Shown here one piece after another: positions 20,640 to 48,996 of a stretch of DNA of 64,000 nucleotides (the stretch's first letter is position 1; each line of letters opens with the position of its first letter). Below the pieces are notes generated by a model that made no database searches, was not told where the DNA came from, and saw nothing but the letters and a program-made list of their open reading frames with translations. Origin of the DNA: Escherichia coli (GTDB lineage: Bacteria > Pseudomonadota > Gammaproteobacteria > Enterobacterales > Enterobacteriaceae). The stretch is taken from the NCBI RefSeq assembly GCF_016903815.1, contig NZ_CP069973.1; one strand, 5' to 3'. Both the position numbers and the translations under genes were made by a program.

Positions 20640-20703
20640 TGGTTTCATCCCTGAATGTCAGTGCCAAAGGCTGACAATAACCAAAGCAGCTATAGTACGG
20701 TGC

Positions 20704-21504
20704 TCACCACCAGGCGTGGAAGTGGTGAACCGGACCAATACCGTGACCAACTTCCAGCGTGTCGGCCTGGGCTAACGCCGATGAAAGCCAGCTTTTTGCC
20801 TCCTGTACGGTGTCAGCCCAGTTTGTATGGCGCGGGCGTAGTGCAGCCAACGCCGCAGAGAGCGTACAACCAGTGCCGTGGGTGTTTTGGGTCATAATGC
20901 GCGGTGCAGTAAATCGTTGTTCCCCCTCACGAGTAAACAGCCAGTCAGGGCTTTGCTCATCATCCAGATGACCACCTTTCATTAGCACTGCGCCACAGCC
21001 CATCGCCAACAGCGATCGCCCTTGTTCCAGCATTTCCTGTTCGGTGCGCGCGTGTGGCGCGTCGAGCAAGGCAGCAGCTTCGGGCAAGTTTGGCGTTATT
21101 AATGAAACCTGTGGCAATAATCGACTGCGCAGCGTAGCAACCGCCGAAGGTGAAAGCAGCGGGTCGCCGCTTTTTGCCAGCATAACGGTGTCGAGTACCA
21201 CGTTTTGGATCTGATAACGTTGCAACCGTTCTGCCACCGCTTCAACAATATCGGTTTCCGCCAACATACCGATTTTAGTGGTGTCGATTCGCACATCGCT
21301 GAACACCGAATCGAGCTGGGCGGCGACAAAATCAGGCTCAATGCGATACACCGACTGTACGCCACGGGTATTTTGCGCCACCAGTGCAGTAATCACTGAG
21401 CAACCATAAGCGCCAAGTGCCGAGAAGGTTTTAAGATCGGCCTGAATCCCCGCACCACCACTCGGATCAGTACCGGCAATCGTCAGAGCGTTAATTCGTT
21501 TCAT
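20704..21504 (-). CDS. thiD: Hydroxymethylpyrimidine/phosphomethylpyrimidine kinase
   Basis: 266 aa, [21 protein letters not shown]-terminus typical of ThiD. Confidence 0.9.
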
Positions 21505-31160: not shown

Positions 31161-31291
31161 CCCGACTCCTTTTTTGTATAGATAAACCATCAGCTGATAG
31201 TTTACCTGAAGAATATAGAGAAGTACTTACTTAACATTTTTCCATTTGGTACTATCTAACCCCTTTTCACTATTAAGAAGTAATGCCTACT

Positions 31292-33334: not shown

Positions 33335-33366
33335 AAGGCGCTGTATCGACAGCGCCTTTTCTTTAT
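33335..33366 (+). terminator. metG intrinsic terminator
   Basis: Hairpin AGGCGCTGT-ATCG-ACAGCGCCT followed by TTTTCTTT. Confidence 0.6.
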
Positions 33367-33465: not shown

Positions 33466-36400
33466 ATGAGGCACTTTATCTTTCAGGACGAAAAATCACA
33501 TAAATTCTGGGCGGTGGAGCAACAGGGAAACGAGTTGCATATCTGTTGGGGAAAAGTTGGCACCAAAGGGCAAAACCAGGTAAAAAGTTTTGCGGATGCT
33601 GCGGCAGCGGCAAAAGCGGAGCTTAAGCTGATCGCAGAGAAAACGAAAAAAGGCTATGTGGAAAATGCTTTAGCAAACGTGCATATCCCCCCCATCACCA
33701 AAGCCACTCCTGAAGTTGAAACCTCCCCTGAGAGTAAAAACAAACGCCCATGGGTGGCTGATGATGCAGTCATTCCGGTAACTGGCGATATTAATCGATT
33801 TGCTTTTCCTCATCGCTCTCGCCCCAGAGAGATCAATTATCTGTACAAAGATGGCCAAATATGGAAGCGCATCGCGAATAACACCAGGGCATATGACCCC
33901 GACAATAATTACCGCTCTTATCCTGAAAACTGGCAGCTGGCGTTTGCCGAGTTACAAAGGCGAATTCTGAATAATCAACAAACAGGAAGTATACAATCTG
34001 ATGCGGCATTGCTCTGGAATTTATGGAACTCTTACTCTACAGATGAACTGGTCGATGACTTAGTCATTCGCTGTGGTCTGGAAACTACCGTTGAAATCGC
34101 CCTTCTCGCTCTTCAACTCAAATATAAACCAGTAAAAGCCGACGTCACCACCATTATTCCCCCTGATCTCAAAGCAGAATCACTACCGAACTGGCATCAA
34201 CGTCTATGTCATCATCTTTCACTCGCTTCAGAAGATGAGTGGCAACGCTGTGTAGATAAAGTTCTCGCTGCTATTCCCTCGCTATCCCCAGCACGGCAAC
34301 CTTTTGCGGCGTTACTGCTCCCTGAACGCCCGGATATTGCCAATGCTATGGCGCTACGTTATGCAGATCAAAACGTTCCGGCGATGACCTGGTTAAGACT
34401 GGTGGTAACCGATGACGCCGCTCTGACTACAGCAGAAAAATACGACTTCCCACCGTTGTATCATGATTTTCGCGCTTATCTGGCAATGTTGCTGGCAAAT
34501 AATGGGGTGCGCGGTGTAAGCCGGATACTTCTTGAGTTTACGGAAGAGCATTCTGACAATCCCACTTATCTCTTCGAGCGCATCAGCGAGACTGAAGATC
34601 TTGTCAAATGGCTATGGAAAACGAATCACCCGGATGCGATTCAAATTCTGATCCTCGGTGTAATTGGCAAGAAAAAGCACCTGGAATACTTAAGCAAAGC
34701 CTGTCAAAAACATCCCGCTGCGGCTCTTGCCGCTTATGCAACTTTACTGGCAATACATGAAGATGCACAGTGGCGTAAAGCGCTTGTCAAACTGATTACC
34801 GCCACGCCAGATTTAGTCACTGACGTCATTCCCTGGGTTAATGCTAAAGCGGCAGGCATCTTATCTGAATGTCGTACTCAGTTAGTCGCTGAAGAATGTG
34901 AATACGCCACTGCGGATATGTTGCCGGAGCTGTTTGTCGCTCCACCGTGGGTAATAAATAAGAAAACGAATGTAATACCCGTATTTGATTTACCGGTGCT
35001 TCCCATCCCTGCAGTCACTGACATCACGCCAGGAATTACAGAGTTAATCAGTCATACTGACATATCCAGATTCAGTGAAATCGCGCAATATCAGTCATCA
35101 CAGCAAACCTTATTTACCGACCTGCCACTAATTGAAAAAGAAAGCTGGGAGACATCTTTCATTCCTTTTACACCAGAACAACAAATCCTTTGGCAATTAG
35201 GTTTTAATGAATGGCTGCATTGCGAAGATGACTTACATGAAAAAAAATATATACCGCAAAGCGCTGTTGATGCCTTGTTGCGCTTTGATTTTCCAGCACT
35301 AAAAGCTGAGTTTGCGAAATATCACAACAATGCCAACAAAAGCTGGAATCTATCTGCGCTTTGTTACTTACCGGGACAACAGGCGATTTCATTTCTCAAC
35401 CAAATAATCATTGAGGAGCGATATTCAGGTGAGAAAGAGATTCTGGCAGTTTTTGGTAGTACGGCCATTCCTGCGTTTATGACCTGCTTGCAACGAGATC
35501 ATCAACGACTGTGGATATTCACCCTCTTTATTGGGGCCAGTGAACTAGCCTTACCAATGGCGCAGCGGTTACAGAAAAAAATGGCTTACAAGGATGCCAT
35601 TAATTGGCTGGCAAATAACCCGCGCCATGCCGCCGCCGGGCTACTGCCTTTGGCGCTGGGCAAACCGTGCCAAAATCGGGAATATGCCCGCCAGGCATTC
35701 CGCCTGCTAGTGAAATTAAACCAGCGAGAAACGATTGAAGAAATCGGCCGGAGATACAACCAACCTGATGTTTTAGCTGCGCTGGCAACATTGTTCGATA
35801 GCGATCCGCTGGAAGAATATCCCGCTAAAATCGCCCCACTGCCCGGCTTTTATCAGTTCACCTTATGGCGCAGACCACGGCTTAAAAGTAACAACCTGCC
35901 TCTGCCAGATGACGCTATGCGCCACCTGGGCACAATGTTGAGCTTTCCACGCGACATTACCTCCTACGCTGGGCTGGCGACCATCAAAGAGACCTTCACC
36001 CACGAATCACTGGCTGACTTTGGCTGGGATCTCTACACGGCATGGACAGAAGCTGGCGCACCCGCAAAAGAAAACTGGGCATTTACTTCGCTTGGGATTT
36101 TAGGCAATGACGACACCGCACGTAAATTAACCCCGCTTATCCGTGCCTGGCCGGGTGAATCCCAGCATAAACGCGCGGTTTACGGGCTGGATGTATTAGC
36201 TGATATTGGCAGCGATGTTGCGCTAATGCTGCTTAATGGCATCGCGCGAAAAATTAAATTCAAAGCATTACAGGAACATGCCCGCGAGAAAATCAACATA
36301 GTTGCTGAAAACCGTGGGCTGACTATGGCTGAACTGGAAGACCGCCTGGCTCCAGATTTAGGGCTTGATAACAGTGGCTCGCTGATACTGGATTTCGGCC

Positions 36401-37263
36401 CACGTCAATTCACCGTTGGTTTTGACGAAACCTTAAAACCTGTAGTGCACGATGCAAACGGCAAAGTCCTGAAAGATTTACCCAAACCAAATCAGAGCGA
36501 TGATCAAACACTGGCAACTGACTCCGTTAACCTCTTCAAACAATTGAAGAAAGATGTGCACGCCATTGCCAGCCAGCAGATTGATCGTCTGGAGCAGGAT
36601 ATGTGCCAGCGCAGACGCTGGACGGCAGAGCAGTTCCGCCTGTTTCTGGTGGAGCATCCGCTGGTACGTCACTTAACCCGACGGGTGTTATGGGGGGTAT
36701 ATACTGAGGAAAACACGCTGATCGCCTGCTTCCGGGTCGCAGAAGACAGCACTTACAGCGATGCGCAGGATGAGTTATTCACGCTGCCAGCAGGAAACAT
36801 CGGTATACCGCATGTGCTGGAAATATCTCCTGAATCCGCCACTGCATTTGGGCAAATTTATGCTGATTACGAAAAGCTTCCTCCCTTTCGCCAACTCGAT
36901 CGTGGTTATTACCACCTTACTGATAATGAACGTGATACCCATGAATTGATACGCTGGCAAGGACGTCTTTGCCAGGCCGGGCGCATTGTCGGGCTGGAAC
37001 GTCGAGGCTGGCAACGTCTGGAAGAAAGCGGCAGCGTCTATGCGATGCGCAAATCTACCCCTTATGGCGCTCTCGAACTTGAAACAGAACATTTTTCATT
37101 AATTTATGGCGAAACGGGGTATAGCGACCTGCTACCTGTTGAAAGCGTAAAAATCACTTCACCAGGGGAACGCTACAGTACACAGCCCTCGCTCACGTTC
37201 TCCGCGCTTGATGCCATCACCGCCAGCGAACTCATTAACGACATCGAATCACTTTTTGATTAA
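33466..37263 (+). CDS. molR: MolR-family giant protein, intact (1265 aa), N-terminal WGR-like module
   Basis: N-terminus HKFWAVEQQGNELHICWGKVGTKGQ resembles the WGR fold; long helical body; first gene after the metG terminator. Confidence 0.8.
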   Translation: MRHFIFQDEKSHKFWAVEQQGNELHICWGKVGTKGQNQVKSFADAAAAAKAELKLIAEKTKKGYVENALANVHIPPITKATPEVETSPESKNKRPWVADDAVIPVTGDINRFAFPHRSRPREINYLYKDGQIWKRIANNTRAYDPDNNYRSYPENWQLAFAELQRRILNNQQTGSIQSDAALLWNLWNSYSTDELVDDLVIRCGLETTVEIALLALQLKYKPVKADVTTIIPPDLKAESLPNWHQRLCHHLSLASEDEWQRCVDKVLAAIPSLSPARQPFAALLLPERPDIANAMALRYADQNVPAMTWLRLVVTDDAALTTAEKYDFPPLYHDFRAYLAMLLANNGVRGVSRILLEFTEEHSDNPTYLFERISETEDLVKWLWKTNHPDAIQILILGVIGKKKHLEYLSKACQKHPAAALAAYATLLAIHEDAQWRKALVKLITATPDLVTDVIPWVNAKAAGILSECRTQLVAEECEYATADMLPELFVAPPWVINKKTNVIPVFDLPVLPIPAVTDITPGITELISHTDISRFSEIAQYQSSQQTLFTDLPLIEKESWETSFIPFTPEQQILWQLGFNEWLHCEDDLHEKKYIPQSAVDALLRFDFPALKAEFAKYHNNANKSWNLSALCYLPGQQAISFLNQIIIEERYSGEKEILAVFGSTAIPAFMTCLQRDHQRLWIFTLFIGASELALPMAQRLQKKMAYKDAINWLANNPRHAAAGLLPLALGKPCQNREYARQAFRLLVKLNQRETIEEIGRRYNQPDVLAALATLFDSDPLEEYPAKIAPLPGFYQFTLWRRPRLKSNNLPLPDDAMRHLGTMLSFPRDITSYAGLATIKETFTHESLADFGWDLYTAWTEAGAPAKENWAFTSLGILGNDDTARKLTPLIRAWPGESQHKRAVYGLDVLADIGSDVALMLLNGIARKIKFKALQEHAREKINIVAENRGLTMAELEDRLAPDLGLDNSGSLILDFGPRQFTVGFDETLKPVVHDANGKVLKDLPKPNQSDDQTLATDSVNLFKQLKKDVHAIASQQIDRLEQDMCQRRRWTAEQFRLFLVEHPLVRHLTRRVLWGVYTEENTLIACFRVAEDSTYSDAQDELFTLPAGNIGIPHVLEISPESATAFGQIYADYEKLPPFRQLDRGYYHLTDNERDTHELIRWQGRLCQAGRIVGLERRGWQRLEESGSVYAMRKSTPYGALELETEHFSLIYGETGYSDLLPVESVKITSPGERYSTQPSLTFSALDAITASELINDIESLFD

Positions 37264-37275
37264 AAGGACTTTGCA

Positions 37276-40200
37276 ATGAAAACCTATATTTATCAGGACG
37301 AAAAATCACATAAATTCTGGGCGGTGGAGCAGCAGGGAAACGAACTGAATATCAGTTGGGGCAAAGTCGGCACCAACGGGCAAAGTCAGGTAAAAAGCTT
37401 TGCAGATGCTGCGGCGGCGGAAAAAGCGGAACTCAAGCTGATTGCGGAGAAAACGAAAAAGGGGTATGTGGAACATGCGGAGAATGCTACATCGAAACAT
37501 ACTCGAACGGTAACGAAATCTCTCGAATTATCTGACTTTTCTACCATCATTCAGGAACAGCCCTCAGTTACACCAGAATTCTACGTGGCTGACAAAAATA
37601 CAGACGTTATTTTACCGTGGCTGGCAAAAGATATTGCTGTCGTTTTTCCGCTTGAAGTCGTACCCACCACCTTAAGCCATCGCCGCTTTCCCGGAGATCC
37701 TGTTACACCTGTAGATAAATTAACCCAGTTACGTCGCTTAGCCTGTGGCGTGTCGCAACGGGATAACAAAACAGCTACATTTGACTTCAGCGCCTGTACT
37801 TTAGAGTGGCAAAACTTCATCGCTCAGGCGATCGATCTGATTAACAGCCCGAAAACGACAAAATTACCATCACCGGTAATGGCTGTACTCGCGGCACTTG
37901 AACTGCACTGCACGAGATATAAAGAGCGTGCGGATGTTATGGATCAGATTATTCAGGAAGGCGGTCTGGAATATGCTACTGATGTAATAATACATCTTCA
38001 ACAAATATCTATTGAATGGGATTATGTCAACAATAATATTGTTTTCCTGTCGTCTGGCATTTCACCTGATTATTTGCAGCAATATTCCAGCTTTGAATTA
38101 CGCCTACGTAAACATTTATCACTGGCGGAAGAGTCTCTCTGGCAAAAATGTGCACAAAAACTTATTGCCGCAGTTCCACATATTCCAGAATGGCGGCAAC
38201 CATTAATTGCTTTGTTATTGCCCGAAAAACCAGAAATTGCACATGAAATTGCCCAGCGTCTACTGGGGCAAAAGAAATTACCCTCGCTGGAGTGGCTAAA
38301 AATAGTGGCGACTGATGAGCACATTCTTGCCTCATTAGAAAAATATCACGAGCCATATGCCATTTTTGATGATTACTATTGTGGTGCGATATGGTCAGCC
38401 ACCGTATTACAGGAGCAAGGTGTTGCGGCCCTGCCCCGATTTGCTCCCTATGTCGCAAGTGACTACTGCGCCGATGTGTTGCGTCATATCAATCATCCGT
38501 TCGCATTAACACTGCTTATACGTGTAGCAGGGCATACTAAACGCTGTCACGATCGAATGACGAAAGCCTGCGCTGCGTTCCCACACGCAGCACTGGCAGC
38601 ACTGGCGGAACTTCTAGTGCAAAAAGAAGAGAATAGTTGGCGCATTATGCTAATGACGATGCTTATCTCGCAACCGACACTAGCAGAACAGGTCATTCCC
38701 TGGCTTTCGACACCCGCAGTTGCAGTGCTGAAATCATGCCAGCAACAACTGACACAGCCCTCAAACCATGCCAGCGCCGATCTACTGCCGGCCATAGTAG
38801 TCTCCCCACCATGGCTTTCGAAAAAGAAAAAATCGCCGATTCCAGTGCTTGATTTAGCACCATTAGGTATTGAGCCAATCAGTTATCTGACAGAAGAAAT
38901 CAGTAATCAACTTTTGGCGAAATATATCTGGTATTCAAAACACATCACGGTTAGTCATGAAGAAAGTACTGCCAATCTGTTGGCAAGGATGGGTTTTCAA
39001 CGACGGATCGCTGGTACATATATTAAAGCTCCCGAAGCGGTAGTTGAGGCATGGCTAAATGAAGATTATTCAACTTTAATAAGTGAATTTAAGGTGTTTC
39101 ATTCACCTACCGGGCATTATTGGCATTTGGGGATTTTGACAACATTGCCGCTGGAGAAAGCAGTAAGAGCATGGAATGCCCTTACTCTATCTCCGCATAC
39201 CGATACCGAATACGCCATGTTACATTTTGGACTCAAAGGATTACCTGGGTTAGTAAACTCACTTGCACGCTATCCACAGGAAGCCTTGCCCATAACGAAT
39301 TACTTCGCAGCGAGTGAGCTGGCACCTGCCGTCGCCCGCGCCTTCAACAAACTCAAAACCCTACGACAAGACGCCCGCACCTGGCTGCTGAAATACCCGG
39401 AACACGCCATTACCGGCCTGCTGTCTGCGGCGCTCGGCAAAGCCGGTGAAGCACAGGATAACGCCCGCGCTGCATTGCGTATGCTTACCGAAAACGGTCA
39501 TCAACCATTACTGCAAGAAATCGCCCGGCGTTATAACCAGCCGGAAGTAACAGATGCGGTGAACGCTATGCTTGCGCTCGATCCCTTAGATAATCACCCG
39601 ACAAAAATCCCCACTCTTCCGGCCTTTTATCAGCCATCGATCTGGACCCGCCCGGTATTAAAAGCAAATGCCCAATCACTGCCCGATAGCGCACTCCAGC
39701 ACCTCGGTGAAATGCTCCGCTTCCATCAGGAGGAGGCGCTGTATCCGGGATTATTGCAGGTGAAAGATGCCTGTACCGCCGACTCACTGGCTGAATTTGC
39801 CTGGGATCTGTTTACCGCCTGGCAGACCGCTGGCGCGCCGTCGAAAGAGAGTTGGGCGTTCACTGCGTTAGGCGTTCTCGGTAACGATGACACCGCCCGC
39901 AAACTGACGCCATTAATACGCGCCTGGCCTGGTGAATCCCAGCATAAACGCGCCACCGTCGGGCTGGATATCCTCGCCGCTATCAGTAGTGATATCGCCC
40001 TGATGCAGCTTAACGGCATTGCCCAGAAACTGAAATTCAAAGCATTACAGGAGCGGGCGAAAGAGAAAATTGCCGACATTGCCGAAAGTCGCGAACTGAC
40101 GGTAGCGGAGCTTGAAGATCGGTTAGCACCGGCTCTCGGTCTGGATGATAACGGTTCGCTGCTGCTGGATTTTGGCCCACGGCAGTTCACCGTCAGCTTT

Positions 40201-41070
40201 GATGAAACCTTAAAACCGTTTGTGCGCGATGTTTCCGGCAGCCGCCTGAAAGACTTACCTAAACCCAATAAAAGCGATGATGAATCACAGGCAAACGATG
40301 CTGTTAACCGCTACAAATTGCTGAAAAAAGATGCGCGTACCGTCGCCGCCCAGCAGGTAGCAAGGCTGGAATCCGCCATGTGCCTGCGCCGCCGCTGGTC
40401 GCCGGAAAACTTTCAGCTCTTCCTGGTTGAGCATCCGCTGGTTCGTCACTTAACCCGCCGTCTGATTTGGGGCGTTTATAGCGCCGAAAACCAGCTACAG
40501 GCGTGCTTTAGGGTGGCGGAAGATAACAGCTACAGCACCGCTGACGATGATCTTTTCACCTTGCAGGAAGGCGATATCTCTGTTGGCATTCCTCACGTTC
40601 TGGAAATATCACCGACGGATGCTGTCGCCTTTGGTCAGCTTTTTGCCGACTACGAACTGCTACCACCGTTCCGTCAGCTTGAACGTAACAGTTACGCCCT
40701 GACAGAAGCCGAGCGCAACGCCAGCGAACTGACCCGCTGGGCAGGCAGAAAATGCCCGAGCGGCCGGGTCATGGGGCTGGCAAATAAAGGCTGGATAAAG
40801 GGCGAACCACAGGATGGAGGCTGGATCGGATGGATGATCAAACCTCTCGGTCGCTGGTCGTTAATCATGGAAATCGACGAAGGTTTTGCGGTGGGTATGT
40901 CACCAGCCGATCTTAGCGCTGAGCAGGTCTTAAGCAAGCTGTGGCTATGGGAAGGCAAAGCGGAAAGCTATGGCTGGGGGAGTAATTCAACTCAGGAAGC
41001 GCAGTTCTCCGTGCTCGACGACATCACCGCCAGCGAACTCATTAACGATATTGAAGCCCTGTTTGAATAA
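37276..41070 (+). CDS. yehI: MolR paralog (1264 aa), N-terminal WGR-like module
   Basis: Collinear homology to molR along its length; near-identical N- and C-terminal ends; 12-nt gap after molR stop with AAGGA RBS. Confidence 0.8.
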   Translation: MKTYIYQDEKSHKFWAVEQQGNELNISWGKVGTNGQSQVKSFADAAAAEKAELKLIAEKTKKGYVEHAENATSKHTRTVTKSLELSDFSTIIQEQPSVTPEFYVADKNTDVILPWLAKDIAVVFPLEVVPTTLSHRRFPGDPVTPVDKLTQLRRLACGVSQRDNKTATFDFSACTLEWQNFIAQAIDLINSPKTTKLPSPVMAVLAALELHCTRYKERADVMDQIIQEGGLEYATDVIIHLQQISIEWDYVNNNIVFLSSGISPDYLQQYSSFELRLRKHLSLAEESLWQKCAQKLIAAVPHIPEWRQPLIALLLPEKPEIAHEIAQRLLGQKKLPSLEWLKIVATDEHILASLEKYHEPYAIFDDYYCGAIWSATVLQEQGVAALPRFAPYVASDYCADVLRHINHPFALTLLIRVAGHTKRCHDRMTKACAAFPHAALAALAELLVQKEENSWRIMLMTMLISQPTLAEQVIPWLSTPAVAVLKSCQQQLTQPSNHASADLLPAIVVSPPWLSKKKKSPIPVLDLAPLGIEPISYLTEEISNQLLAKYIWYSKHITVSHEESTANLLARMGFQRRIAGTYIKAPEAVVEAWLNEDYSTLISEFKVFHSPTGHYWHLGILTTLPLEKAVRAWNALTLSPHTDTEYAMLHFGLKGLPGLVNSLARYPQEALPITNYFAASELAPAVARAFNKLKTLRQDARTWLLKYPEHAITGLLSAALGKAGEAQDNARAALRMLTENGHQPLLQEIARRYNQPEVTDAVNAMLALDPLDNHPTKIPTLPAFYQPSIWTRPVLKANAQSLPDSALQHLGEMLRFHQEEALYPGLLQVKDACTADSLAEFAWDLFTAWQTAGAPSKESWAFTALGVLGNDDTARKLTPLIRAWPGESQHKRATVGLDILAAISSDIALMQLNGIAQKLKFKALQERAKEKIADIAESRELTVAELEDRLAPALGLDDNGSLLLDFGPRQFTVSFDETLKPFVRDVSGSRLKDLPKPNKSDDESQANDAVNRYKLLKKDARTVAAQQVARLESAMCLRRRWSPENFQLFLVEHPLVRHLTRRLIWGVYSAENQLQACFRVAEDNSYSTADDDLFTLQEGDISVGIPHVLEISPTDAVAFGQLFADYELLPPFRQLERNSYALTEAERNASELTRWAGRKCPSGRVMGLANKGWIKGEPQDGGWIGWMIKPLGRWSLIMEIDEGFAVGMSPADLSAEQVLSKLWLWEGKAESYGWGSNSTQEAQFSVLDDITASELINDIEALFE

Positions 41071-41079
41071 GGAAAGAGC

Positions 41080-43278
41080 ATGGACAAGGAATTACCGTGG
41101 CTGGCGGATAACGCCCAAGTGGAACTGAAATATAAAAAAGGCAAAACGCCGCTCAGCCATCGCAGTTGGCCGGGCGAACCGGTGCCTGTTATCACTGAAA
41201 GCCTCATCCAGACACTGGGTGATGAATTGCTACAAAAAGCTGAGAAGAAAAAAAACATTGTCTGGCGTTATGAAAATTTTTCACTGGAGTGGCAGTCGGC
41301 CATTACGCAGGCCATCAACTTGATTGGCGAACACAAACCCTCAGTTCCGGCCCGGACAATGGCGGCGCTAGCCTGTATCGCGCAAAATGATAGCCAACAG
41401 TTGCTCGACGAAATCGTCCAACAAGAGGGACTGGAATATGCGACTGAGGTGGTGATTGCACGCCAGTTTATTACACGATGTTATGAAAGTGATCCTCTGC
41501 TAGTGACATTGCAGTATCAGAACGAGGATTATGGCTATGGTTATCGATCAGAAACCTATAACGAATTCGATCTCCGACTGCGTAAGCATCTCTCTCTGGC
41601 AGAGGAAAGCAGCTGGCAGCGTTGCGCCGACAAACTCATTGCCGCACTGCCAGGAATAACCAAAGTTCGCCGCCCTTTTATTGCTCTGATCCTCCCGGAA
41701 AAACCAGAAATCGCCAATGAGTTGGTAAGCCTTGAATGCCCGTGGACTCATTTTCATTCTAAGGAGTGGTTAAAAGTTGTTGCTATTGACCCCAGAGCGG
41801 TGAGAAAACTCGAACGCTACTGGAGCCAGGATATATTTAGCGATCGGGAAGCCAGCTACATGTCGCATGAAAACCACTTCGGCTACGCGGCCTGCGCTGC
41901 CCTTTTGCGCGAACAAGGACTGGCAGCCGTTCCACGCCTGGCAATGTATGCCCATAAAGAAGATTGCGGCAGTCTGCTGGTACAAATTAACCATCCGCAG
42001 GTCATCCGCACCCTGCTGTTAGTTGCTGATAAAAACAAACCCAGCCTGCAACGTGTAGCTAAATACAGTAAAAATTTCCCCCATGCGACGCTTGCCGCAC
42101 TGGCAGAACTGCTGGCGCTAAAAGAACCACCTACGCGCCCTGGTTATCCAATCATCGAAGACAAAAAGCTGCCTGCACAGCAAAAAGCACGTGATGAATA
42201 CTGGCGTACGCTGTTACAAACGCTGATGGCATCGCAGCCACAACTGGCAGAAGAGGTGATGCCGTGGTTAAGTACTCAAGCCCGGTCAGTGCTGAATAGT
42301 TATTTATCGGCACCGCCTAAAACGGTTATTGATAGCACCGATAACAGCCAAATGCCTGAAATCCTCGTTTCACCACCGTGGCGTAGTAAGAAAAAAATGA
42401 CAGTTCCACGTCTTGATTTGGCACCGTTCGAATTAACGCCGCAAGTTTACTGGCAACCAGGCGAACGAGAGAGGCTTGCCGCCACTGAGTCTGCCCGTTA
42501 TTTCAGCACGGAATCTCTTGCGGAACGCATGGAACATAAAAGTGGACGAGTTGTACTACAGGAGCTGGGTTTTGGAGATGATGTATGGCTGTTTCTGAAT
42601 TATATACTCCCCGGAAAACTGGATGCTGCACGCAATTCACTCATTGTTCAGTGGCATTACTACCAGGGGCGGGTTGAAGAGATCCTGAATGGCTGGAACT
42701 CCCCGGAAGCACAATTAGCAGAACAGGCGCTTCGCAGCGGTCACGTAGAAGTGTTAATTAACATATGGGAAAATGACAGCTACTCACGCTATCGTCGGGA
42801 AAAGAGTATCTGGAACCTGTATTTATTGGCACAGTTGCCGCGTGAGATGGCTTTGACTTTCTGGCTACGTATCAATGAGAAAAAGCATCTGTTCGCGGGT
42901 GAGGACTATTTTCTCAGTATCTTCGGATTGGATGCTCTACCAGGTCTGCTGTTGGCTTTTTCACATCGTCCAAAAGAAACATTTCCGTTAATTTTAAATT
43001 TTGGCGCAACAGAACTGGCCCTGCCCGTTGCCCGCGTCTGGCGACGTTTCGCGGCGCAGCGTGATCTGGCTCGCCAGTGGATTTTACAATGGCCGGAACA
43101 TACGGCTACTGCACTTATCCCTCTTGTCTTCACCAAATCCAGCGATAATAGCGAAGCTGCATTACTTGCCCTACGTTTACTTTACGAACAGGGACATGGT
43201 GAATTGCTGCAAACCGCGGCAAACCGCTGGCAGCGTACAGATGTATGGCCTGCCCCGGTCTGGCAAAACTGGTGCTGA
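41080..43278 (+). CDS. Third MolR/YehI-family paralog (732 aa), no WGR module, ends at TGA
   Basis: Aligns to YehI residues ~100-800 (LPWLA, LRLRKHLSLAEES, PEKPEIA, VSPPW.SKKK blocks); starts 10 nt after yehI stop with AAGGAAAGA RBS; no P-loop. Confidence 0.6.
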   Translation: MDKELPWLADNAQVELKYKKGKTPLSHRSWPGEPVPVITESLIQTLGDELLQKAEKKKNIVWRYENFSLEWQSAITQAINLIGEHKPSVPARTMAALACIAQNDSQQLLDEIVQQEGLEYATEVVIARQFITRCYESDPLLVTLQYQNEDYGYGYRSETYNEFDLRLRKHLSLAEESSWQRCADKLIAALPGITKVRRPFIALILPEKPEIANELVSLECPWTHFHSKEWLKVVAIDPRAVRKLERYWSQDIFSDREASYMSHENHFGYAACAALLREQGLAAVPRLAMYAHKEDCGSLLVQINHPQVIRTLLLVADKNKPSLQRVAKYSKNFPHATLAALAELLALKEPPTRPGYPIIEDKKLPAQQKARDEYWRTLLQTLMASQPQLAEEVMPWLSTQARSVLNSYLSAPPKTVIDSTDNSQMPEILVSPPWRSKKKMTVPRLDLAPFELTPQVYWQPGERERLAATESARYFSTESLAERMEHKSGRVVLQELGFGDDVWLFLNYILPGKLDAARNSLIVQWHYYQGRVEEILNGWNSPEAQLAEQALRSGHVEVLINIWENDSYSRYRREKSIWNLYLLAQLPREMALTFWLRINEKKHLFAGEDYFLSIFGLDALPGLLLAFSHRPKETFPLILNFGATELALPVARVWRRFAAQRDLARQWILQWPEHTATALIPLVFTKSSDNSEAALLALRLLYEQGHGELLQTAANRWQRTDVWPAPVWQNWC

Positions 43279-43332
43279 CAGTGGGGCTTACAGCAGGCGG
43301 GAGAACAACTGCTAAAAACGGTTCTCACCCGT

Positions 43333-44772
43333 TTGCGCCAGCACCACTTGCCTGCTTCGACCGCGGATATGGCTGCCGCTCATCTGCATGCGATGGCGCT
43401 GGCACAGTTGCGCGGACATAAACTACCGTTACGCACTGACTGGCTGGATGCCATAGCAGGCTCGCTGATTAAAGAAGCCCTGAACGCGCCGTTGCCGTGG
43501 AGCTATCGCGGCGTTATTCATCCCGACACCGATCCGATTCTGCTAACGTTGATAGACACATTAGCGGGTGACGGATTCGGTAAACTTGCCCCTTCTACGC
43601 CACAACCGCCTCTGCCAAAAGATGTCACCTGCGAACTGGAACGTACCGCAATCTCTCTTCCGGCGGAGCTTACCTTAAATCGCTTTAACCCCAATGGACT
43701 AGCGCAAAGTCAGGTGTTACATCGGCTGGCAATACTGGAGATCCCAGGGATTGTACGCCAGCAGGGAAGCACACTGACACTTGCAGGCAACGGTGAAGAA
43801 CAGTGGAAATTAACCCGCCCGCTTAGCCAGCATGCGGCATTGATTGAGGCCGCCTGCTTTGGTGCCACACTCCAGGAAGCCGCACGCCATAAATTAGAAG
43901 CCGATATGCTGGACGCGGGTGGAATCGGCAGTATCACCACATGTCTTAGCCAGGCGGCGTTAGCGGGTCTGGCGTCCTTCAGTCAACAATTATTGGAGCA
44001 ACTCACATTATTAATCGCCCAGGAAAATCAATTTGCCGAAATGGGCCAGGCGCTGGAAGTGCTATATGCCTTATGGCGGCTGGATGAAATTAGCGGTATG
44101 CAAGGCGCGCAGATATTACAAACGACGTTATGCGCGGCTATCGATCGCACGCTGTGGCTGTGTGAATCTAACGGCAGACCAGATGAAAAGGAGTTTCACG
44201 CTCACCTGCATAGCTGGCAGGCGCTTTGCCATATCCTGCGCGATCTACATAGCGGCGTTAATTTACCCGGCGTTTCTCTTTCTGCGGCGGTAGCCTTACT
44301 GGACCGCCGCAGTCAAGCGATTCATGCCCCGGCGCTGGATCGCGGCGCGGCTCTTGGCGCACTGATGCGTCTGGAACATCCCAACGCCAGTGCCGAAGCG
44401 GCGCTGACAATGCTGGCGCAGTTATCCCCGGCACAATCCGGCGAAGCGCTGCACGGTTTGCTGGCGCTGGCCCGCCATCAACTGGCCTGTCAGCCGGCAT
44501 TTATCGCCGGTTTCAGTAGTCATTTAAATCAACTGAGTGACGACGATTTTATTAACGCCCTGCCCGATTTACGCGCGGCGATGGCCTGGCTACCACCACG
44601 AGAACGCGGGACGCTGGCGCATCAGGTGCTTGAGCATTATCAACTGGCGCAACTTCCCGTTTCGGCACTGCAAATGCCGTTGCATTGTCCACCACAAGCC
44701 ATTGCACATCATCAACAACTCGAACAGCAGGCACTGGCATCGCTGCAACACTGGGGAGTTTTCCATGTCTGA
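43333..44772 (+). CDS. Ala/Leu-rich protein, start uncertain (TTG 43333 or ATG 43369); same frame as upstream paralog
   Basis: 479-aa ORF unrelated to the MolR C-terminal domain; overlaps yehP start by 8 nt. May correspond to the C-terminal part of K-12 yehM (recollection, unverified). Confidence 0.5.
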   Translation: MRQHHLPASTADMAAAHLHAMALAQLRGHKLPLRTDWLDAIAGSLIKEALNAPLPWSYRGVIHPDTDPILLTLIDTLAGDGFGKLAPSTPQPPLPKDVTCELERTAISLPAELTLNRFNPNGLAQSQVLHRLAILEIPGIVRQQGSTLTLAGNGEEQWKLTRPLSQHAALIEAACFGATLQEAARHKLEADMLDAGGIGSITTCLSQAALAGLASFSQQLLEQLTLLIAQENQFAEMGQALEVLYALWRLDEISGMQGAQILQTTLCAAIDRTLWLCESNGRPDEKEFHAHLHSWQALCHILRDLHSGVNLPGVSLSAAVALLDRRSQAIHAPALDRGAALGALMRLEHPNASAEAALTMLAQLSPAQSGEALHGLLALARHQLACQPAFIAGFSSHLNQLSDDDFINALPDLRAAMAWLPPRERGTLAHQVLEHYQLAQLPVSALQMPLHCPPQAIAHHQQLEQQALASLQHWGVFHV

Positions 44773-45901
44773 ACTGAACGATCTTCTGACCACCCGTGAG
44801 CTACAACGCTGGCGATTAATTCTTGGCGAAGCGGCAGAAACGACGCTTTGTGGGCTGGATGACAACGCCCGGCAGATAGACCACGCGCTGGAGTGGCTGT
44901 ATGGGCGCGATCCTGAACGGCTCCAGCGTGGTGAACGCTCCGGTGGATTAGGTTGCTCAAATCTCACCACCCCTGAGTGGATCAACAGTATTCACACGCT
45001 GTTTCCGCAACAGGTGATTGAACGGCTGGAAAGCGATGCCGTACTGCGCTACGGCATTGAAGATGTGGTGACGAATCTCGACGTGCTGGAACGTATGCAG
45101 CCTTCTGAAAGCCTGCTACGCGCCGTTTTGCACACCAAACATCTGATGAATCCCGAAGTACTGGCTGCCGCCCGCCGGATAGTACGCCAGGTTGTTGAAG
45201 AAATTATGGCGCGACTGGCAAAGGAAGTTCGTCAGGCTTTTTCTGGTGTCCGCGATCGCCGTCGCCGCTCATTTATTCCACTGGCGCGAAACTTTGATTT
45301 CAAAAGTACGCTGCGCGCCAACCTGCAACACTGGCACCCGCAACACGGCAAGTTGTATATCGAATCCCCCCGCTTTAACAGCCGCATTAAACGCCAAAGC
45401 GAACAATGGCAACTGGTCTTACTGGTTGATCAAAGCGGATCAATGGTGGACTCGGTGATCCACTCAGCGGTGATGGCGGCCTGTTTATGGCAGTTACCCG
45501 GTATTCGTACCCATCTGGTGGCGTTTGACACCAGCGTGGTTGATCTCACGGCAGATGTTGCCGATCCGGTAGAGTTATTAATGAAAGTGCAATTAGGCGG
45601 CGGAACCAATATCGCCAGTGCCATGGAATATGGTCGGCAACTTATTGAACAACCAGTGAAAAGCGTCATTATCCTCGTGAGCGATTTTTACGAAGGGGGT
45701 TCATCATCATTACTGACGCATCAGGTGAAAAAGTGTGTCCAGAGCGGCATCAAAGTGCTGGGACTGGCGGCGCTCGATAGCACCGCAACACCTTGCTATG
45801 ACCACGATACGGCCCAGGCGCTGGTTAATGTCGGCGCACAAATAGCCGCCATGACACCGGGCGAGCTGGCATCATGGCTTGCGGAGAATCTTCAGTCATG
45901 A
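44765..45901 (+). CDS. yehP: von Willebrand factor A domain protein
   Basis: 378 aa from MSELNDLL; MIDAS-like DQSGSM...GGTN...SDF. Confidence 0.8.
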   Translation: MSELNDLLTTRELQRWRLILGEAAETTLCGLDDNARQIDHALEWLYGRDPERLQRGERSGGLGCSNLTTPEWINSIHTLFPQQVIERLESDAVLRYGIEDVVTNLDVLERMQPSESLLRAVLHTKHLMNPEVLAAARRIVRQVVEEIMARLAKEVRQAFSGVRDRRRRSFIPLARNFDFKSTLRANLQHWHPQHGKLYIESPRFNSRIKRQSEQWQLVLLVDQSGSMVDSVIHSAVMAACLWQLPGIRTHLVAFDTSVVDLTADVADPVELLMKVQLGGGTNIASAMEYGRQLIEQPVKSVIILVSDFYEGGSSSLLTHQVKKCVQSGIKVLGLAALDSTATPCYDHDTAQALVNVGAQIAAMTPGELASWLAENLQS

Positions 45902-47898
45902 ATTCACTACGTCCGGAATTATTAGAACTGACACCACAAGCTTTGACGGCGTTAAGCAATGCCGGTTTTGTTAAGCGCAGCCTTAAAGAACTGGAAAATG
46001 GCAACGTCCCGGAAATCAGCCATGAGAACGGCGCTTTAATCGCCACCTTCAGTGACGGTGTCCGCACCCAGCTGGCGAACGGTCAGGCACTGAAAGAGGC
46101 TCAGTGCAGCTGCGGGGCCAGCGGCATGTGCCGCCATCGCGTGATGCTGGTTTTAAGTTATCAGCGACTTTGCGCCACCACCCAGCCTACGGAAAAAGAA
46201 GAAGAGTGGGATCCGGCAATCTGGCTGGAAGAACTGGCTACCCTGCCCGATGCCACCCGCAAACGCGCGCAGGCACTGGTCGCTAAAGGTATCACCATTG
46301 AGTTGTTCTGTACGCCGGGCGAAATTCCCTCTGCCCGCTTACCGATGAGCGATGTACGTTTTTATTCCCGCAGCAGCATTCGTTTCGCACGCTGTGATTG
46401 TATTGAAGGAACACTTTGCGAACATGTCGTACTGGCAGTACAGGCCTTTGTCCAGGCCAAAGCGCAGCAAGCGGAATTTACTCATTTAATCTGGCAGATG
46501 CGCAGCGAACACGTCACATCATCTGACGATCCGTTTGCCAACGATGAGGGCGACGCGTGTCGTCAATATGTTCAGCAATTAAGCCAGGCGTTATGGCTTG
46601 GCGGCATCAGCCAGCCGCTTATTCATTACGAGGCTGCTTTCAGCCGCGCGCAGCAAGCGGCGGAACGCTGCAACTGGCGATGGGTGAGTGAATCGCTACG
46701 GCAACTGCGCGCCAGCGTTGATGCCTTCCACGCCCGCGCCAGCCACTATCATGCCGGAGAATGCTTACGTCAGCTTGCGGCATTAAACAGTCGATTAAAT
46801 TGCGCACAAGAGATGGCGCGGCGCGACAGTGTTGGTGAAGTTCCTCCGATGCCGTGGCGCACGGTCGTTGGCGCTGGCATTGCCGGAGAAGCAAAGCTTG
46901 ATCATCTGCGGCTGGTGTCTTTAGGTATGCGTTGCTGGCAGGATATTGAGCAGTATGGTTTACGCATCTGGTTCACCGATCCCGACACCGGCAGTATTTT
47001 GCACCTTTCGCGCAGTTGGCCGCGAAGTGAACAGGAAAACTCACCGGCAGCGACGCGTCGGCTATTTAGTTTTCAGGCTGGCGCACTGGCAGGTGGGCAA
47101 ATTGTTTCACAAGCAGCAAAACGCAGTGCCGATGGCGAGCTGTTGTTAGCTACCCGCAACCGCTTGAGTAGTGTTGTGCCGCTGTCGCCAGACGCCTGGC
47201 AAATGTTGAGCGCGCCATTGCGCCAGCCGGGCATTGTGGCTTTGCGGGAATATTTACGCCAGCGTCCCCCCGCCTGCATACGGCCTCTTAATCAGGTGGA
47301 TAACTTATTTATTCTGCCAGTCGCTGAGTGTATTTCACTCGGTTGGGATAGCAGCCGCCAGACGCTGGATGCGGAGGTAATCAGCGGCGAAGGTGAAGAT
47401 AACGTGCTGACATTATCCCTACCAGCCTCTGCCTGTTCGCCCTTTGCTGTTGAACGCATGGCAGCTCTGTTACAACAAACAGAGGACCCCGTGAGTATGG
47501 TTTCTGGCTTTGTCAGTTTTGTAGAGGGGCAATTGACACTGGAACCACAGGTAATGATGACAAAGACTCGTGCCTGGGCTCTGGACGCAGAAACTACGCC
47601 TGTGGCACCGCTACCTTCTGCCAGCGTTTTGCCTGTGCCGTCTACCGCTCATCAGTTGCTGATGCGCTGCCAGGCGTTACTTATTCAACTGCTCCATAAC
47701 GGCTGGCGCTATCAGGAACAGAGTGCTATTGGTCAGGCAGAGTTGCTGGCGAATGACCTCACCGCGGTGGGTTTTTATCGGCTGGCACATGTGTTGGCAC
47801 AATTTCGTAATACAGAAAGCGAGGCACGGGTAGAAGCAATGAATAACGGTGTTTTGCTTTGCGAACAATTATTCCCCATGCTTCAGCAACAAGGATGA
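45898..47898 (+). CDS. yehQ: SWIM zinc-finger protein, two SWIM motifs
   Basis: ATGA overlap with yehP; CSCGASGMCRHRV and CDCIEGTLCEHVV are both CxCx(n)CxH. Confidence 0.8.
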   Translation: MNSLRPELLELTPQALTALSNAGFVKRSLKELENGNVPEISHENGALIATFSDGVRTQLANGQALKEAQCSCGASGMCRHRVMLVLSYQRLCATTQPTEKEEEWDPAIWLEELATLPDATRKRAQALVAKGITIELFCTPGEIPSARLPMSDVRFYSRSSIRFARCDCIEGTLCEHVVLAVQAFVQAKAQQAEFTHLIWQMRSEHVTSSDDPFANDEGDACRQYVQQLSQALWLGGISQPLIHYEAAFSRAQQAAERCNWRWVSESLRQLRASVDAFHARASHYHAGECLRQLAALNSRLNCAQEMARRDSVGEVPPMPWRTVVGAGIAGEAKLDHLRLVSLGMRCWQDIEQYGLRIWFTDPDTGSILHLSRSWPRSEQENSPAATRRLFSFQAGALAGGQIVSQAAKRSADGELLLATRNRLSSVVPLSPDAWQMLSAPLRQPGIVALREYLRQRPPACIRPLNQVDNLFILPVAECISLGWDSSRQTLDAEVISGEGEDNVLTLSLPASACSPFAVERMAALLQQTEDPVSMVSGFVSFVEGQLTLEPQVMMTKTRAWALDAETTPVAPLPSASVLPVPSTAHQLLMRCQALLIQLLHNGWRYQEQSAIGQAELLANDLTAVGFYRLAHVLAQFRNTESEARVEAMNNGVLLCEQLFPMLQQQG

Positions 47899-47975
47899 AA
47901 TAGTGTTTTTTACTAAGAGTTCCACTCCAGTTCCGGACTGCTCACGCCACGGTATTAGGCATATCCTATATAGCC

Positions 47976-47999
47976 CCTGGTGAGAGTCACCAGTTTCTT
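47976..47999 (+). terminator. Intrinsic terminator after yehQ
   Basis: Hairpin CTGGTGA-GAG-TCACCAG followed by TTTCTTG. Confidence 0.5.
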
Positions 48000-48022
48000 G
48001 ATTAAATAAAATGGAGTTTTAC

Positions 48023-48484
48023 ATGAAGGCTTTCAATAAGCTGTTTTCCCTCGTTGTTGCATCTGTTCTGGTTTTCTCTCTTGCTGGCTGCGGTGACAAA
48101 GAAGAATCGAAAAAATTCAGCGCCAATCTGAACGGTACTGAAATTGCCATTACCTATGTCTACAAAGGTGACAAGGTGCTTAAGCAATCTTCTGAAACCA
48201 AAATTCAATTTGCCTCCATTGGTGCAACCACCAAAGAAGACGCTGCCAAGACACTTGAGCCGTTAAGCGCCAAATACAAAAACATCGCGGGTGTTGAAGA
48301 AAAATTAACCTATACCGATACTTACGCGCAGGAAAACGTGACTATCGATATGGAAAAAGTGGATTTCAAAGCCCTGCAGGGTATTTCAGGAATCAACGTT
48401 TCTGCTGAAGATGCCAAAAAAGGTATCACTATGGCGCAAATGGAACTGGTGATGAAAGCCGCTGGTTTTAAAGAAGTGAAATAA
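48023..48484 (+). CDS. yehR: Lipoprotein YehR
   Basis: MKAFNKLFSLVVASVLVFSLAGC lipobox. Confidence 0.8.
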   Translation: MKAFNKLFSLVVASVLVFSLAGCGDKEESKKFSANLNGTEIAITYVYKGDKVLKQSSETKIQFASIGATTKEDAAKTLEPLSAKYKNIAGVEEKLTYTDTYAQENVTIDMEKVDFKALQGISGINVSAEDAKKGITMAQMELVMKAAGFKEVK

Positions 48485-48490
48485 TCTGTC

Positions 48491-48516
48491 GGCGGCCATG
48501 TTTTTGCATGGCCGCC
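48491..48516. terminator. Hairpin between convergent yehR and yehS
   Basis: GGCGGCCATG/CATGGCCGCC 10-bp stem; no strong T-tract. Confidence 0.35.
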
Positions 48517-48525
48517 ATACCCGTC

Positions 48526-48996
48526 TTAGCTTTTCTTCACATGCTGGCGCGCTGCCAGTCCACGCAGAAAATAACGTAAAAATTGATCGCCGCATTCGCG
48601 GAAGTTTTTATGATCCGGTGCACGCATCATCGCCGTAATTTCCGGCATCGAAACGCGGAACTGCTGTTCGGTAAGGATCGCCAGAATGTCATCGGTTTTC
48701 AGCGAAAACGCGATGCGTAATTTTTTCAGCACGATGTTGTTATTAATGCGACGTTCCGGCTCCAGTGCCGGAGCAGACTCATCCTTGCCGCGTTTTTCAT
48801 AAATCAGGCCATTGAGGAAGGAAGACAAAACAATGTCCGGACAACGCTGAAAACCCTCTTCGTCTTCTTTACGTAGCCAGACGGCGATCTGTTCCGCGGT
48901 GGCTTCGACATTACCCAGCGCCAGAATACGCACCAGGTCATTATTATTGGCTTTCAAAATGTAGCGCACGCTGCGCAGAATATCGTTACTTAGCAT
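48526..48996 (-). CDS. yehS: DUF1456-family protein YehS
   Basis: 156 aa from MLSNDILRSV; position before btsR. Confidence 0.75.
   Translation of the reverse strand: MLSNDILRSVRYILKANNNDLVRILALGNVEATAEQIAVWLRKEDEEGFQRCPDIVLSSFLNGLIYEKRGKDESAPALEPERRINNNIVLKKLRIAFSLKTDDILAILTEQQFRVSMPEITAMMRAPDHKNFRECGDQFLRYFLRGLAARQHVKKS

Follow-up and report, generated by a model that had tools for sequence, protein, structure and literature searches.

The VWA protein YehP of this Escherichia coli strain, encoded within a 64,000-nucleotide stretch of contig NZ_CP069973.1 that was analyzed as a whole (hereafter, the window), is devoid of an AAA+ partner, very probably because a microhomology-mediated deletion of ~4 kb, fixed in one clone that includes ST405, removed the MoxR ATPase gene yehL. 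The missing ATPase would thus reflect ordinary gene decay, with YehP and the downstream YehQ likely being stranded remnants. The finding is the clone-specific pseudogenization of a dispensable and uncharacterized accessory cluster, and not a new system. It matters little alone, and RefSeq already flags both ORFs at the junction as pseudogenes.

Extent and origin of the deletion

Both K-12 and AF40, the closest intact relative, align colinearly with the window on either side of an 8-nt microhomology (Table 1), at which 4,003 bp are absent as compared with K-12 and 4,273 bp as compared with AF40. Blastn analysis reports one segment of 93% identity, spanning the MolR/YehH orthologue, between positions 37275-43258 of the window and positions 6024-12008 of the K-12 sequence L002, and another between positions 43248-48600 and 16001-21351, respectively, the two overlapping at 43248-43258, around the junction. 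AF40 gives the same pattern. The deletion takes away the C-terminus of yehI (40%), all of yehK, all of yehL (a MoxR AAA_5 ATPase), and codons 1-252 of yehM, and the missing segment is annotated as yehK, yehL, and a full-length yehM in both K-12 and AF40.

At the junction, yehI codons 1-725 are joined in frame to yehM codons 253-759. Tblastn analysis places YehI residues 1-725 at 41080-43254 (93.7% identity) and YehM residues 253-759 at 43249-44772 (97% identity). The resulting 732-aa ORF has lost the ~485 C-terminal residues of YehI, DUF4132 included, and does not return any Pfam family; RefSeq labels it a pseudogene ('incomplete; missing C-terminus'). The yehM remnant matches positions 276-695 only, out of 727 in total, of the Pfam DUF5682 profile. 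It has no credible start codon, is preceded by a nonsense codon, and is also labeled a pseudogene by RefSeq ('internal stop; missing N-terminus').

Table 1. Features of the yeh locus, with their positions in the window
Feature	Position	Strand	Evidence and state
MolR-like paralog 1, 1265 aa	33466..37263	+	Pfam: WGR (E 5.6e-18), DUF4132 (E 3.1e-48); intact
MolR/YehH orthologue, 1264 aa	37276..41070	+	Pfam: WGR and DUF4132; intact
Truncated yehI-yehM fusion, 732-aa ORF	41080..43278	+	YehI residues 1-725 plus 7 yehM-derived codons, then stop
Deletion junction, 8-nt microhomology GCCTGCCC common to yehI and yehM	43248..43255		three-way alignments with K-12 and AF40
TGG>TGA nonsense codon, YehM codon 262	43276..43278	+	translation reads ...WPAPVWQNWC*QWGL
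yehM remnant, codons ~263-759 (479-aa ORF)	43279..44772	+	C-terminal two-thirds of DUF5682
yehP, 378-aa VWA_CoxE protein with MIDAS motif, orphan VWA	44765..45901	+	Pfam, orthologue alignment, AlphaFold2 model; intact
yehQ, 666-aa SWIM zinc-finger protein	45898..47898	+	Pfam: SWIM (E 7.1e-8); RefSeq coordinates; intact

These alignments show a simple course of events. In the ancestor of a single clone including ST405, recombination or slippage between the GCCTGCCC copies of yehI and yehM excised the ~4 kb that separate them, leaving yehP (VWA/MIDAS) and yehQ (SWIM) as intact ORFs, and the in-frame yehI-yehM fusion is closed by the TGA located 21 nt past the microhomology. This codon, 7 codons past the microhomology, reads TGG in K-12, AF40, and PS10-3, and the change is, from the comparison of these sequences, lineage-specific. 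Its position so near the junction (21 nt) could be due to chance or to selection against the fusion protein. Within the 78 nt after the junction, four substitutions set the window apart from K-12 and AF40. PS10-3, whose locus is intact, also has two of them (CTTACAG and GGCGGGAGAA), which are thus ordinary allelic variants. The idea that the mutation cluster represents the scar of an error-prone repair was rejected, as the TGA and a silent-looking T>C are all that is left.

Genes flanking the junction

The first MolR-like paralog is absent from K-12 and AF40, its nucleotide similarity with K-12 being patchy and of only ~70%, and homologues are found in 1,650 of the 5,426 E. coli genomes. It occupies the upstream extremity of the locus, adjoining metG and well away from the yehL position, and is a polymorphism separate from the loss of yehL. 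The molR/yehH gene that follows, intact in the window, is annotated in K-12 as a pseudogene, frameshifted and with an internal stop. Downstream, the start of yehQ overlaps the stop of yehP by 4 nt. YehQ is free of internal stops in the window, as compared with the stop at codon 615 of K-12 yehQ, and differs from its AF40 counterpart by 17 amino acids with no frameshifts.

YehP matches the Pfam family VWA_CoxE (PF05762; 241 bits for a cut-off of 26.4, E 1.3e-71, profile positions 1-222 out of 222), with VWA_2 as a second match and the CoxE-type model as the best one. Its MIDAS motif (D222-Q-S224-G-S226, T281, and D307) is complete and is invariant across 36 orthologues. The AlphaFold2 model (mean pLDDT 75.8, highest over residues ~280-370) predicts a canonical VWA fold for the C-terminal half, with strand-helix alternation over residues 215-378, and Foldseek matches the model to VWA and integrin I domains at E about 1e-6. 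The identity of YehP is 98.7% with its K-12 counterpart and 57-70% from Enterobacteria to Actinobacteria. A single residue distinguishes it from AF40, A298V, in a variable column.

The start of yehP and the stop of yehM share an 8-nt overlap, and the yehP ATG is preceded, at a distance of 7 nt, by the Shine-Dalgarno sequence GGGGAG. A +1 frameshift cassette has been described in yehP (PMC2790909). The window carries ATG GAA TAT GGT CGG in place of GTG GAG TAT GGT CGG, as does AF40, and a tie between the frameshift-cassette allele and the deletion was rejected, the allele being common to the intact-locus AF40. Counting against a loss of function, the ORFs of yehP and yehQ are intact and retain their own Shine-Dalgarno and overlapping start-stop signals.

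Search for an AAA+ partner

In K-12, the locus does contain a MoxR-like yehL, as the earlier note had suggested (362 aa, Pfam AAA_5 E 1.2e-33), and alignment with K-12 locates it inside the missing 4,003 bp. The same note had reported a VWA gene with no MoxR partner in its operon, which is borne out here. Pfam analysis (E <= 0.01) does not return any AAA family for the 1265-, 1264-, 732-, 479-, and 666/674-aa ORFs or for a 104-aa ORF at 43001-43315, and a tblastn search of the whole 64-kb window with K-12 YehL yields a best E of only 3.1. A divergent AAA+ fold inside the 732- or 479-aa ORFs, looked for as the result that would overturn this view, is not found: a hidden domain in these or in the 104-aa ORF is rejected by the negative Pfam results, and for the former two it is excluded by their colinearity with YehI (residues 1-725) and YehM (residues 253-759).

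The statement that no Walker A string occurs in any frame between 33466 and 47898 has to be corrected, as four G....GK[ST] strings exist there. GLPRSGKT (43247-43270) and GCCGSGKS (33594-33617) are read from the plus strand, and the other two (37664-37641 and 35009-34986) from the minus strand. All four lie in frames other than those of the genes, and they were rejected as candidates for an ATPase domain. GLPRSGKT falls inside the 104-aa ORF, which is a mechanical one, and LPRSGKT is also read out of frame in the intact yehM of AF40. The KGKT at residues 20-23 of the third paralog does lack the upstream glycine, residue 16 being a leucine.

K-12 possesses only two MoxR proteins, RavA and YehL, the latter forming a MoxR subfamily of its own (PMC3893208). 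Elsewhere in this lineage, inspection of one 50-kb region gives RavA as the only other MoxR protein, encoded beside a VWA partner of its own, ViaA. Strain 222 matches the window with 100% identity over 41000-46000, and its ravA-viaA genes are located at 5,114,365-5,117,306, megabases away from yehP.

Distribution in E. coli and other species

The identical junction is present in 94 of the 5,426 complete E. coli genomes, and the junction region is 100% identical among the matches listed (n=60). Its carriers include an O102:H6 strain and WCHEC96200, which has been published as ST405, phylogroup D. For comparison, yehL is found in 5,219 out of 5,426 genomes, and a query covering the yehM C-terminus and yehP matches 5,333 out of 5,426, leaving 93 without match. 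The metG/DUF4132/yeh region is a recurrent inactivation site in E. coli clones: IS5 and IS1203 insertions occur in the DUF4132 genes of other strains, and TnMB1860 is inserted in this region in the ST131 sublineage L1a (PMC9334617).

Across species, the order yehL-yehM-yehP-yehQ is kept in 74 of the 76 evaluable loci with a YehP orthologue, and a WGR/DUF4132 gene lies near these four genes in the 74 loci, for example in Variovorax and Luteimonas. YehP is tightly bound to its ATPase across species, and this pairing is the rule for the family. Two betaproteobacterial contigs harbor instead a four-gene cassette devoid of YehL and YehM, comprising a SLFN/AlbA_2-HATPase_c_4 protein, YehP, YehQ, and MolR. 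Between the two contigs, most of this block shows 96% identity and its flanks differ, which suggests, as far as these sequences go, that the cassette moves as one unit.

Alternative explanations

Could the ATPase have been replaced instead of lost? The earlier note had proposed another allele, with MolR-like sequence at the yehL position, and this proposal stands only as to the absence of yehL, which has been deleted and not replaced. An allelic replacement would imply a functional architecture with three MolR paralogs and no MoxR ATPase. It could draw on the three WGR/DUF4132-type ORFs that precede the VWA gene, as compared with two in K-12, and on the strong variability of the DUF4132 region among strains. 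However, the sequence thought to sit in the place of yehL is actually the N-terminal 60% of its ordinary neighbor yehI: at 93.7% identity, the third 'paralog' is the orthologue of residues 1-725 of YehI, ends exactly at the microhomology with yehM, and has lost its DUF4132 domain. Moreover, every sequence at the junction has a counterpart in K-12 or AF40, and the extra paralog lies 6 kb upstream, by metG, away from the yehL position, so that replacement is very improbable. As for an artifact of assembly or sequencing, in which the 4 kb would be a repeat collapsed between paralogous sequences, the three paralogous 3.8-kb genes of the locus could indeed mislead short-read assemblers. Yet the breakpoint genes yehI and yehM are not paralogs and have only 8 nt in common, and 94 complete genomes, sequenced independently in many laboratories and from many hosts, show the same junction, which makes an artifact barely conceivable.

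A functional remodeling, with YehP, YehQ, and the MolR paralogs working without YehL, YehP being either a lone MIDAS-dependent binder or the borrower of another ATPase such as RavA, appears unlikely. The integrity of yehP and yehQ, which are 1 and 17 amino acids away from AF40 and free of frameshifts, speaks for it, as do the betaproteobacterial YehP-YehQ-MolR cassette that is naturally devoid of YehL and YehM and the presence of RavA in the same genome. Nevertheless, YehL and YehM adjoin YehP in 74 out of 76 species loci, the window offers no counterpart to the replacement ATPase-like gene of the betaproteobacterial variant, and RavA has a dedicated VWA partner, ViaA, encoded by an adjacent overlapping gene. 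A nonsense codon moreover terminates the fusion ORF, and intact ORFs cannot be read as a sign of selection in so young and uniform a clone, given the complete identity of the junction region among the listed matches. We also attach a low probability to the broader view that the YehP-YehQ-MolR trio (VWA-SWIM-WGR/DUF4132) is self-sufficient with an exchangeable or dispensable NTPase partner, a view prompted by the Schlafen/AlbA_2-HATPase_c_4 protein that replaces YehL and YehM in betaproteobacteria, or that the clone gained by disarming the ATPase arm. If the trio were self-sufficient, the clone including ST405 would keep a MoxR-independent YehP/YehQ activity along with two intact MolR paralogs; alternatively, it would have benefited from the disarmed ATPase arm of an uncharacterized conflict-type system.

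Residual function and expression

Under the preferred explanation, a deletion and gene decay, YehP and YehQ would most likely be remnants left stranded, in which disabling mutations would not yet have built up. By analogy with the other MoxR-VWA pairs, YehP would serve in the intact system as the MIDAS adaptor through which a client is coupled to the AAA+ ring of YehL; deprived of YehL and of a complete YehM, it could at most bind, unpowered, and the yeh cassette is most likely non-functional in this strain.

With the intergenic region between yehK and yehL lost, any residual transcription of yehP and yehQ would have to read through from genes farther upstream, and could come from the molR-paralog operon. 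The ~1.5 kb of untranslated yehM remnant ahead of yehP may add Rho-dependent polarity. A scan of positions 43000-46000 returned no sigma-70-like promoter (1.9 expected by chance). In AF40, a TTGCAA-17-TATAAT site precedes yehL by ~200 nt, within the stretch that the window has lost, but sites are no more numerous there than expected by chance. These scans are too weak, and we therefore make no claim on expression.

Database searches give few clues to the role of the cluster. PADLOC-DB 2.0, searched for known and candidate anti-phage defense systems (E <= 0.01), returns no match for MolR paralogs 1 and 2, K-12 YehI, YehK, YehL, YehM, YehP, and YehQ, and NCBIfam reports sub-threshold matches only, such as GvpN and MadB for YehL, with no named family. 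PDB sequence searches retrieve Midasin AAA modules for YehL and the WGR-domain protein 2ra8 for MolR, and nothing for YehP, YehM, and YehQ, there being no solved structure of the yeh system. A literature search on DUF4132, DUF5682, yehM, yehQ, and MoxR+WGR+SWIM found no functional study.

The deletion may nonetheless be of use. The microhomology GCCTGCCC followed by the TGA is a clean genomic marker of the deletion clone, including ST405. The clone itself is a natural yehK-yehL-yehM-null, yehP+ yehQ+ background with intact molR and yehQ, which K-12 lacks, and its comparison with intact relatives such as AF40 could help to reveal a phenotype of the widely conserved five-component yeh cassette. 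The species survey also uncovered one natural exception to the YehP-ATPase pairing that is worth a separate look.

Comparison with known systems

The window and the K-12 cluster (yehLMPQ with molR, yehI, and yehK) occupy the same chromosomal site, between metG and yehR, and yehQ, the C-terminal part of yehM, and the N-terminal part of yehI are orthologous. In contrast with K-12, the window is devoid of yehK, yehL, the yehM N-terminus, and the yehI C-terminus, has intact molR and yehQ genes, which are pseudogenes in K-12, and encodes one more MolR paralog. As compared with a YehL-subfamily cassette, it retains the SWIM protein YehQ downstream and two intact WGR+DUF4132 proteins upstream, and has neither an adjacent AAA_5 gene nor a full-length DUF5682 YehM.

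In the MoxR-VWA families, the VWA protein is the adaptor that brings the client to the AAA+ ring. YehP is likewise a VWA protein with a MIDAS motif, as in the RavA-ViaA, NorQ-NorD, CbbQ-CbbO, CoxD-CoxE, and Midasin/MDN1 pairs, and its predicted fold resembles those of NorD in NorQD (9qhe_G) and of the MDN1 MIDAS domain (8ql1), while the AAA modules of Midasin are the closest solved relatives of YehL by sequence. However, the yeh system has three additional conserved components, DUF5682, SWIM, and WGR/DUF4132, that the characterized pairs do not possess, and the ATPase half is wholly missing in the window. The VWA protein of the RavA-ViaA system, encoded in one operon with ravA, enhances the ATPase activity of RavA, whereas yehP lies outside the ravA operon. 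Lastly, unlike the other E. coli disruptions of the region, the present one is a clean microhomology deletion that specifically removed the ATPase and spared the VWA gene.

Organization of the molR/yeh locus

In the window, a clone-specific microhomology deletion has pseudogenised a known, uncharacterised MoxR-VWA cluster and stranded its VWA gene, yehP. The locus, which comprises the plus-strand genes between metG (31283-33325) and yehR, is summarized in the table.

Features of the molR/yeh locus in the window and in compared genomes
Feature	Coordinates	Strand	Remarks
WGR+DUF4132 protein, intact, 1,264-1,265 aa class	33466-37263	+	Pfam
Second WGR+DUF4132 protein, intact, 1,264-1,265 aa class	37276-41070	+	Pfam
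732-aa ORF	41080-43278	+	without Pfam match
Mechanical 479-aa ORF	43333-44772	+	matches DUF5682 profile positions 276-695 of 727 only
YehP, VWA_CoxE, 378 aa	44765-45901	+	Pfam
YehQ, SWIM protein	45898-47898	+	Pfam
K-12 MG1655 locus			molR (pseudogene), yehI, yehK, yehL, yehM, yehP, yehQ (internal stop)
Block without YehL/YehM	L026 8295-17425 (MS502-89); L025 3834-12635 (MS502-43)		Betaproteobacteria bacterium

YehP is a true VWA protein of the MIDAS type, and it is intact. Its VWA_CoxE score is 241 bits (cut-off 26.4), its MIDAS residues D222, S224, S226, T281 and D307 are kept in the window and invariant in 36 orthologues, and its AlphaFold2 model (mean pLDDT 75.8, the C-terminal half being best) exhibits a VWA fold. 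The claim of the earlier note that this gene lacks an AAA+ partner in the operon holds: Pfam reports no AAA domain in any operon ORF, and tblastn of K-12 YehL against the whole 64-kb window returns no match (best E-value 3.1).

The window and isolate AF40, the nearest relative whose locus is intact, share ATG GAA TAT GGT CGG C at yehP codons 287-292 (window 45623-45638), and the GGAG stimulator invoked for the +1 frameshift cassette of yehP (PMC2790909) is therefore lost. The first WGR+DUF4132 paralog (33466-37263) is an extra copy missing from K-12 and AF40, with homologues in only 1,650 of 5,426 E. coli genomes, in identity bands from 80% to 100% (313 at 99% or above, 944 at 80-90%). The molR gene of AF40 is a mosaic relative to the second paralog (37276-41070), and the MolR paralog region is hypervariable, IS5 or IS1203 interrupting some copies. 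Directly 3' of metG lies a strong terminator-like hairpin (33335-33358; 10 pairs, 6 of them G-C, and a T-rich tail), so transcription of the MolR-paralog operon probably begins within the ~100 nt that separate the hairpin from 33466, a stretch where no sigma-70 consensus site is found.

The deletion junction

K-12 does carry at this locus the MoxR-like yehL named in the earlier note (362 residues, AAA_5 E-value 1.2e-33), along with the DUF5682 gene yehM (759 residues). Blastn analysis reports that window 37275-43258 is colinear with 6024-12008 of the K-12 locus (molR and the first 60% of yehI), and window 43248-48600 with 16001-21351 (yehM from codon 253, yehP, yehQ and yehR). The same colinearity is found with AF40, which was picked by a chimeric query ranking intact genomes first. 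Alignments with both genomes place an 8-nt microhomology common to the two sides, GCCTGCCC, at 43248-43255. The missing segment measures 4,003 bp when K-12 is the reference and 4,273 bp against AF40, whose yehK-yehL spacer is longer. Lost with it are the C-terminus of YehI including DUF4132, yehK, the intergenic region between yehK and yehL, yehL itself, and the N-terminal third of YehM. The ATPase is gone, and YehP and YehQ are intact.

Both deletion lengths equal 1 modulo 3, so that yehM codon 253 continues the reading frame of yehI, and tblastn finds YehI 1-725 and YehM 253-759 in one frame. The TGG of K-12, AF40 and PS10-3, another E. coli with an intact locus, is TGA in the window (43276-43278), seven codons (21 nt) past the microhomology. 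As a result, the 732-residue ORF consists of YehI(1-725) and 7 yehM-derived codons, and the 479-residue ORF results from reading the yehM remnant from an arbitrary TTG. The alternative allele suggested in the earlier note is rejected, the MolR-like sequence beside this remnant being simply the truncated neighbour yehI. RefSeq, in its record of E. coli strain 222 (100% identical to window 41000-46000), treats both ORFs flanking ~43244-43249 as pseudogenes, with the respective labels 'missing C-terminus' and 'internal stop; missing N-terminus'.

The nonsense codon is lineage-specific; its closeness to the microhomology within a ~3.7-kb fusion ORF would be unlikely (roughly 1%) if the two events were independent, and selection against a fused YehI-YehM product may account for it. 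An apparent cluster of substitutions close to this codon consists mostly of shared allelic variation.

The KGKT string ascribed to the 732-residue ORF (the third paralog) is present at residues 20-23. The accompanying statement that no frame between 33466 and 47898 contains GxxxxGK[ST] is literally untrue, four such strings occurring, all in non-gene frames. One of them, GLPRSGKT, falls exactly at the deletion junction; it was rejected as an ATPase motif, its host 104-residue ORF (43001-43315) having no Pfam match and a matching LPRSGKT lying out of frame in the intact AF40 yehM too. All four are chance strings.

Spread of the deletion in E. coli

Of 5,426 complete E. coli genomes, only 98 give a full-length megablast match to window 41000-46000; nearly all others match only from query position ~2244-2249 (window ~43244-43249) on. 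A 301-nt junction probe is covered in 94 of these genomes, with 100% identity in all 60 matches listed, among which the sources are human, dog, cattle, pork, wild bird and water from several continents. Carriers include an O102:H6 strain and also WCHEC96200, for which ST405 and phylogenetic group D have been published (PMC5762679). WCHEC4533 and Z1002, which feature in an ST405 comparative study (PMC9037040), have the junction too. Given this spread, the deletion is not an assembly artefact but a fixed marker of one successful clone including ST405.

YehL is encoded in 5,219 of the 5,426 genomes and yehM-C/yehP in 5,333, so that ~114 have yehP without yehL, the deletion clone making up 94-98 of them. 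The locus decays repeatedly in E. coli: molR and yehQ are pseudogenes in K-12, IS elements lie inside DUF4132 genes of other strains, TnMB1860 is found in the region in an ST131 sublineage (PMC9334617), and 93 genomes yield no match to the yehM-C/yehP query. In the K-12 locus, yehQ (18651-20651) is interrupted by a stop at codon 615 and molR (6025-9820) is frameshifted. The window has both genes intact, so K-12 is ill suited as a background in which to study the system.

The YehP cassette across species

YehP orthologues (57-70% identity) extend from Enterobacteria to Burkholderiales, Xanthomonadales, Myxococcota, Trichlorobacter and Actinobacteria. Among 80 loci from different species, tblastn places YehL directly upstream of YehM-YehP-YehQ in 74, four others being too short upstream for judgement. 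A WGR/DUF4132 gene lies upstream, and in Burkholderia a MolR gene lies downstream of yehQ; the genes called in Variovorax and Luteimonas agree, running WGR/DUF4132, AAA_5, DUF5682, VWA_CoxE, SWIM. Between E. coli and Actinobacteria/Betaproteobacteria, YehP (57-70%) and YehL (62-76%) are unusually conserved, whereas YehM (33-48%), YehQ (26-38%) and MolR (~40%) diverge much faster.

The two exceptions are related betaproteobacterial contigs (L025, L026), with neither YehL nor YehM within reach of the cassette. Here, the first gene encodes a 561-residue SLFN/AlbA_2 + HATPase_c_4 + Fic-like_C protein and shares 4 nt with the start of yehP; behind it come YehP, with an intact MIDAS, YehQ, and a 1,402-residue WGR+DUF4132 protein (MolR). 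Most of this block is 96% identical between the two contigs, in contrast to dissimilar flanks, a pattern suggestive of a mobile unit of four genes that has a different NTPase-like partner. This variant is the single pointer to a MoxR-independent role for YehP, YehQ and MolR, which we consider very improbable.

Comparison with known MoxR-VWA systems

K-12 encodes only two MoxR proteins, RavA, which works with ViaA, and YehL, which forms its own MoxR subfamily (Wong et al., PMC3893208). Strain 222 retains ravA and viaA together (5,114,365-5,117,306 of its record), and there is no sign that RavA would serve YehP. The intact cassette returns no PADLOC match and no named NCBIfam family, no solved structure was found for its components, and a literature search found no functional study. 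The orphan VWA gene is a real but ordinary finding.

YehP retains its own Shine-Dalgarno sequence, GGGGAG; transcription of yehP and yehQ would now come from upstream only, across ~1.5 kb of untranslated yehM remnant. Characterised MoxR-VWA pairs are RavA-ViaA, NorQ-NorD, CbbQ-CbbO and CoxD-CoxE, as well as Midasin. YehL resembles the Midasin AAA modules in sequence, and the modelled YehP fold matches integrin I domains, NorD in the NorQD complex and the MDN1 MIDAS domain. By analogy with these systems, YehP would hold a client or partner via its MIDAS site and the YehL ring would provide ATP-driven remodelling, a cassette devoid of YehL being predicted to be inert.
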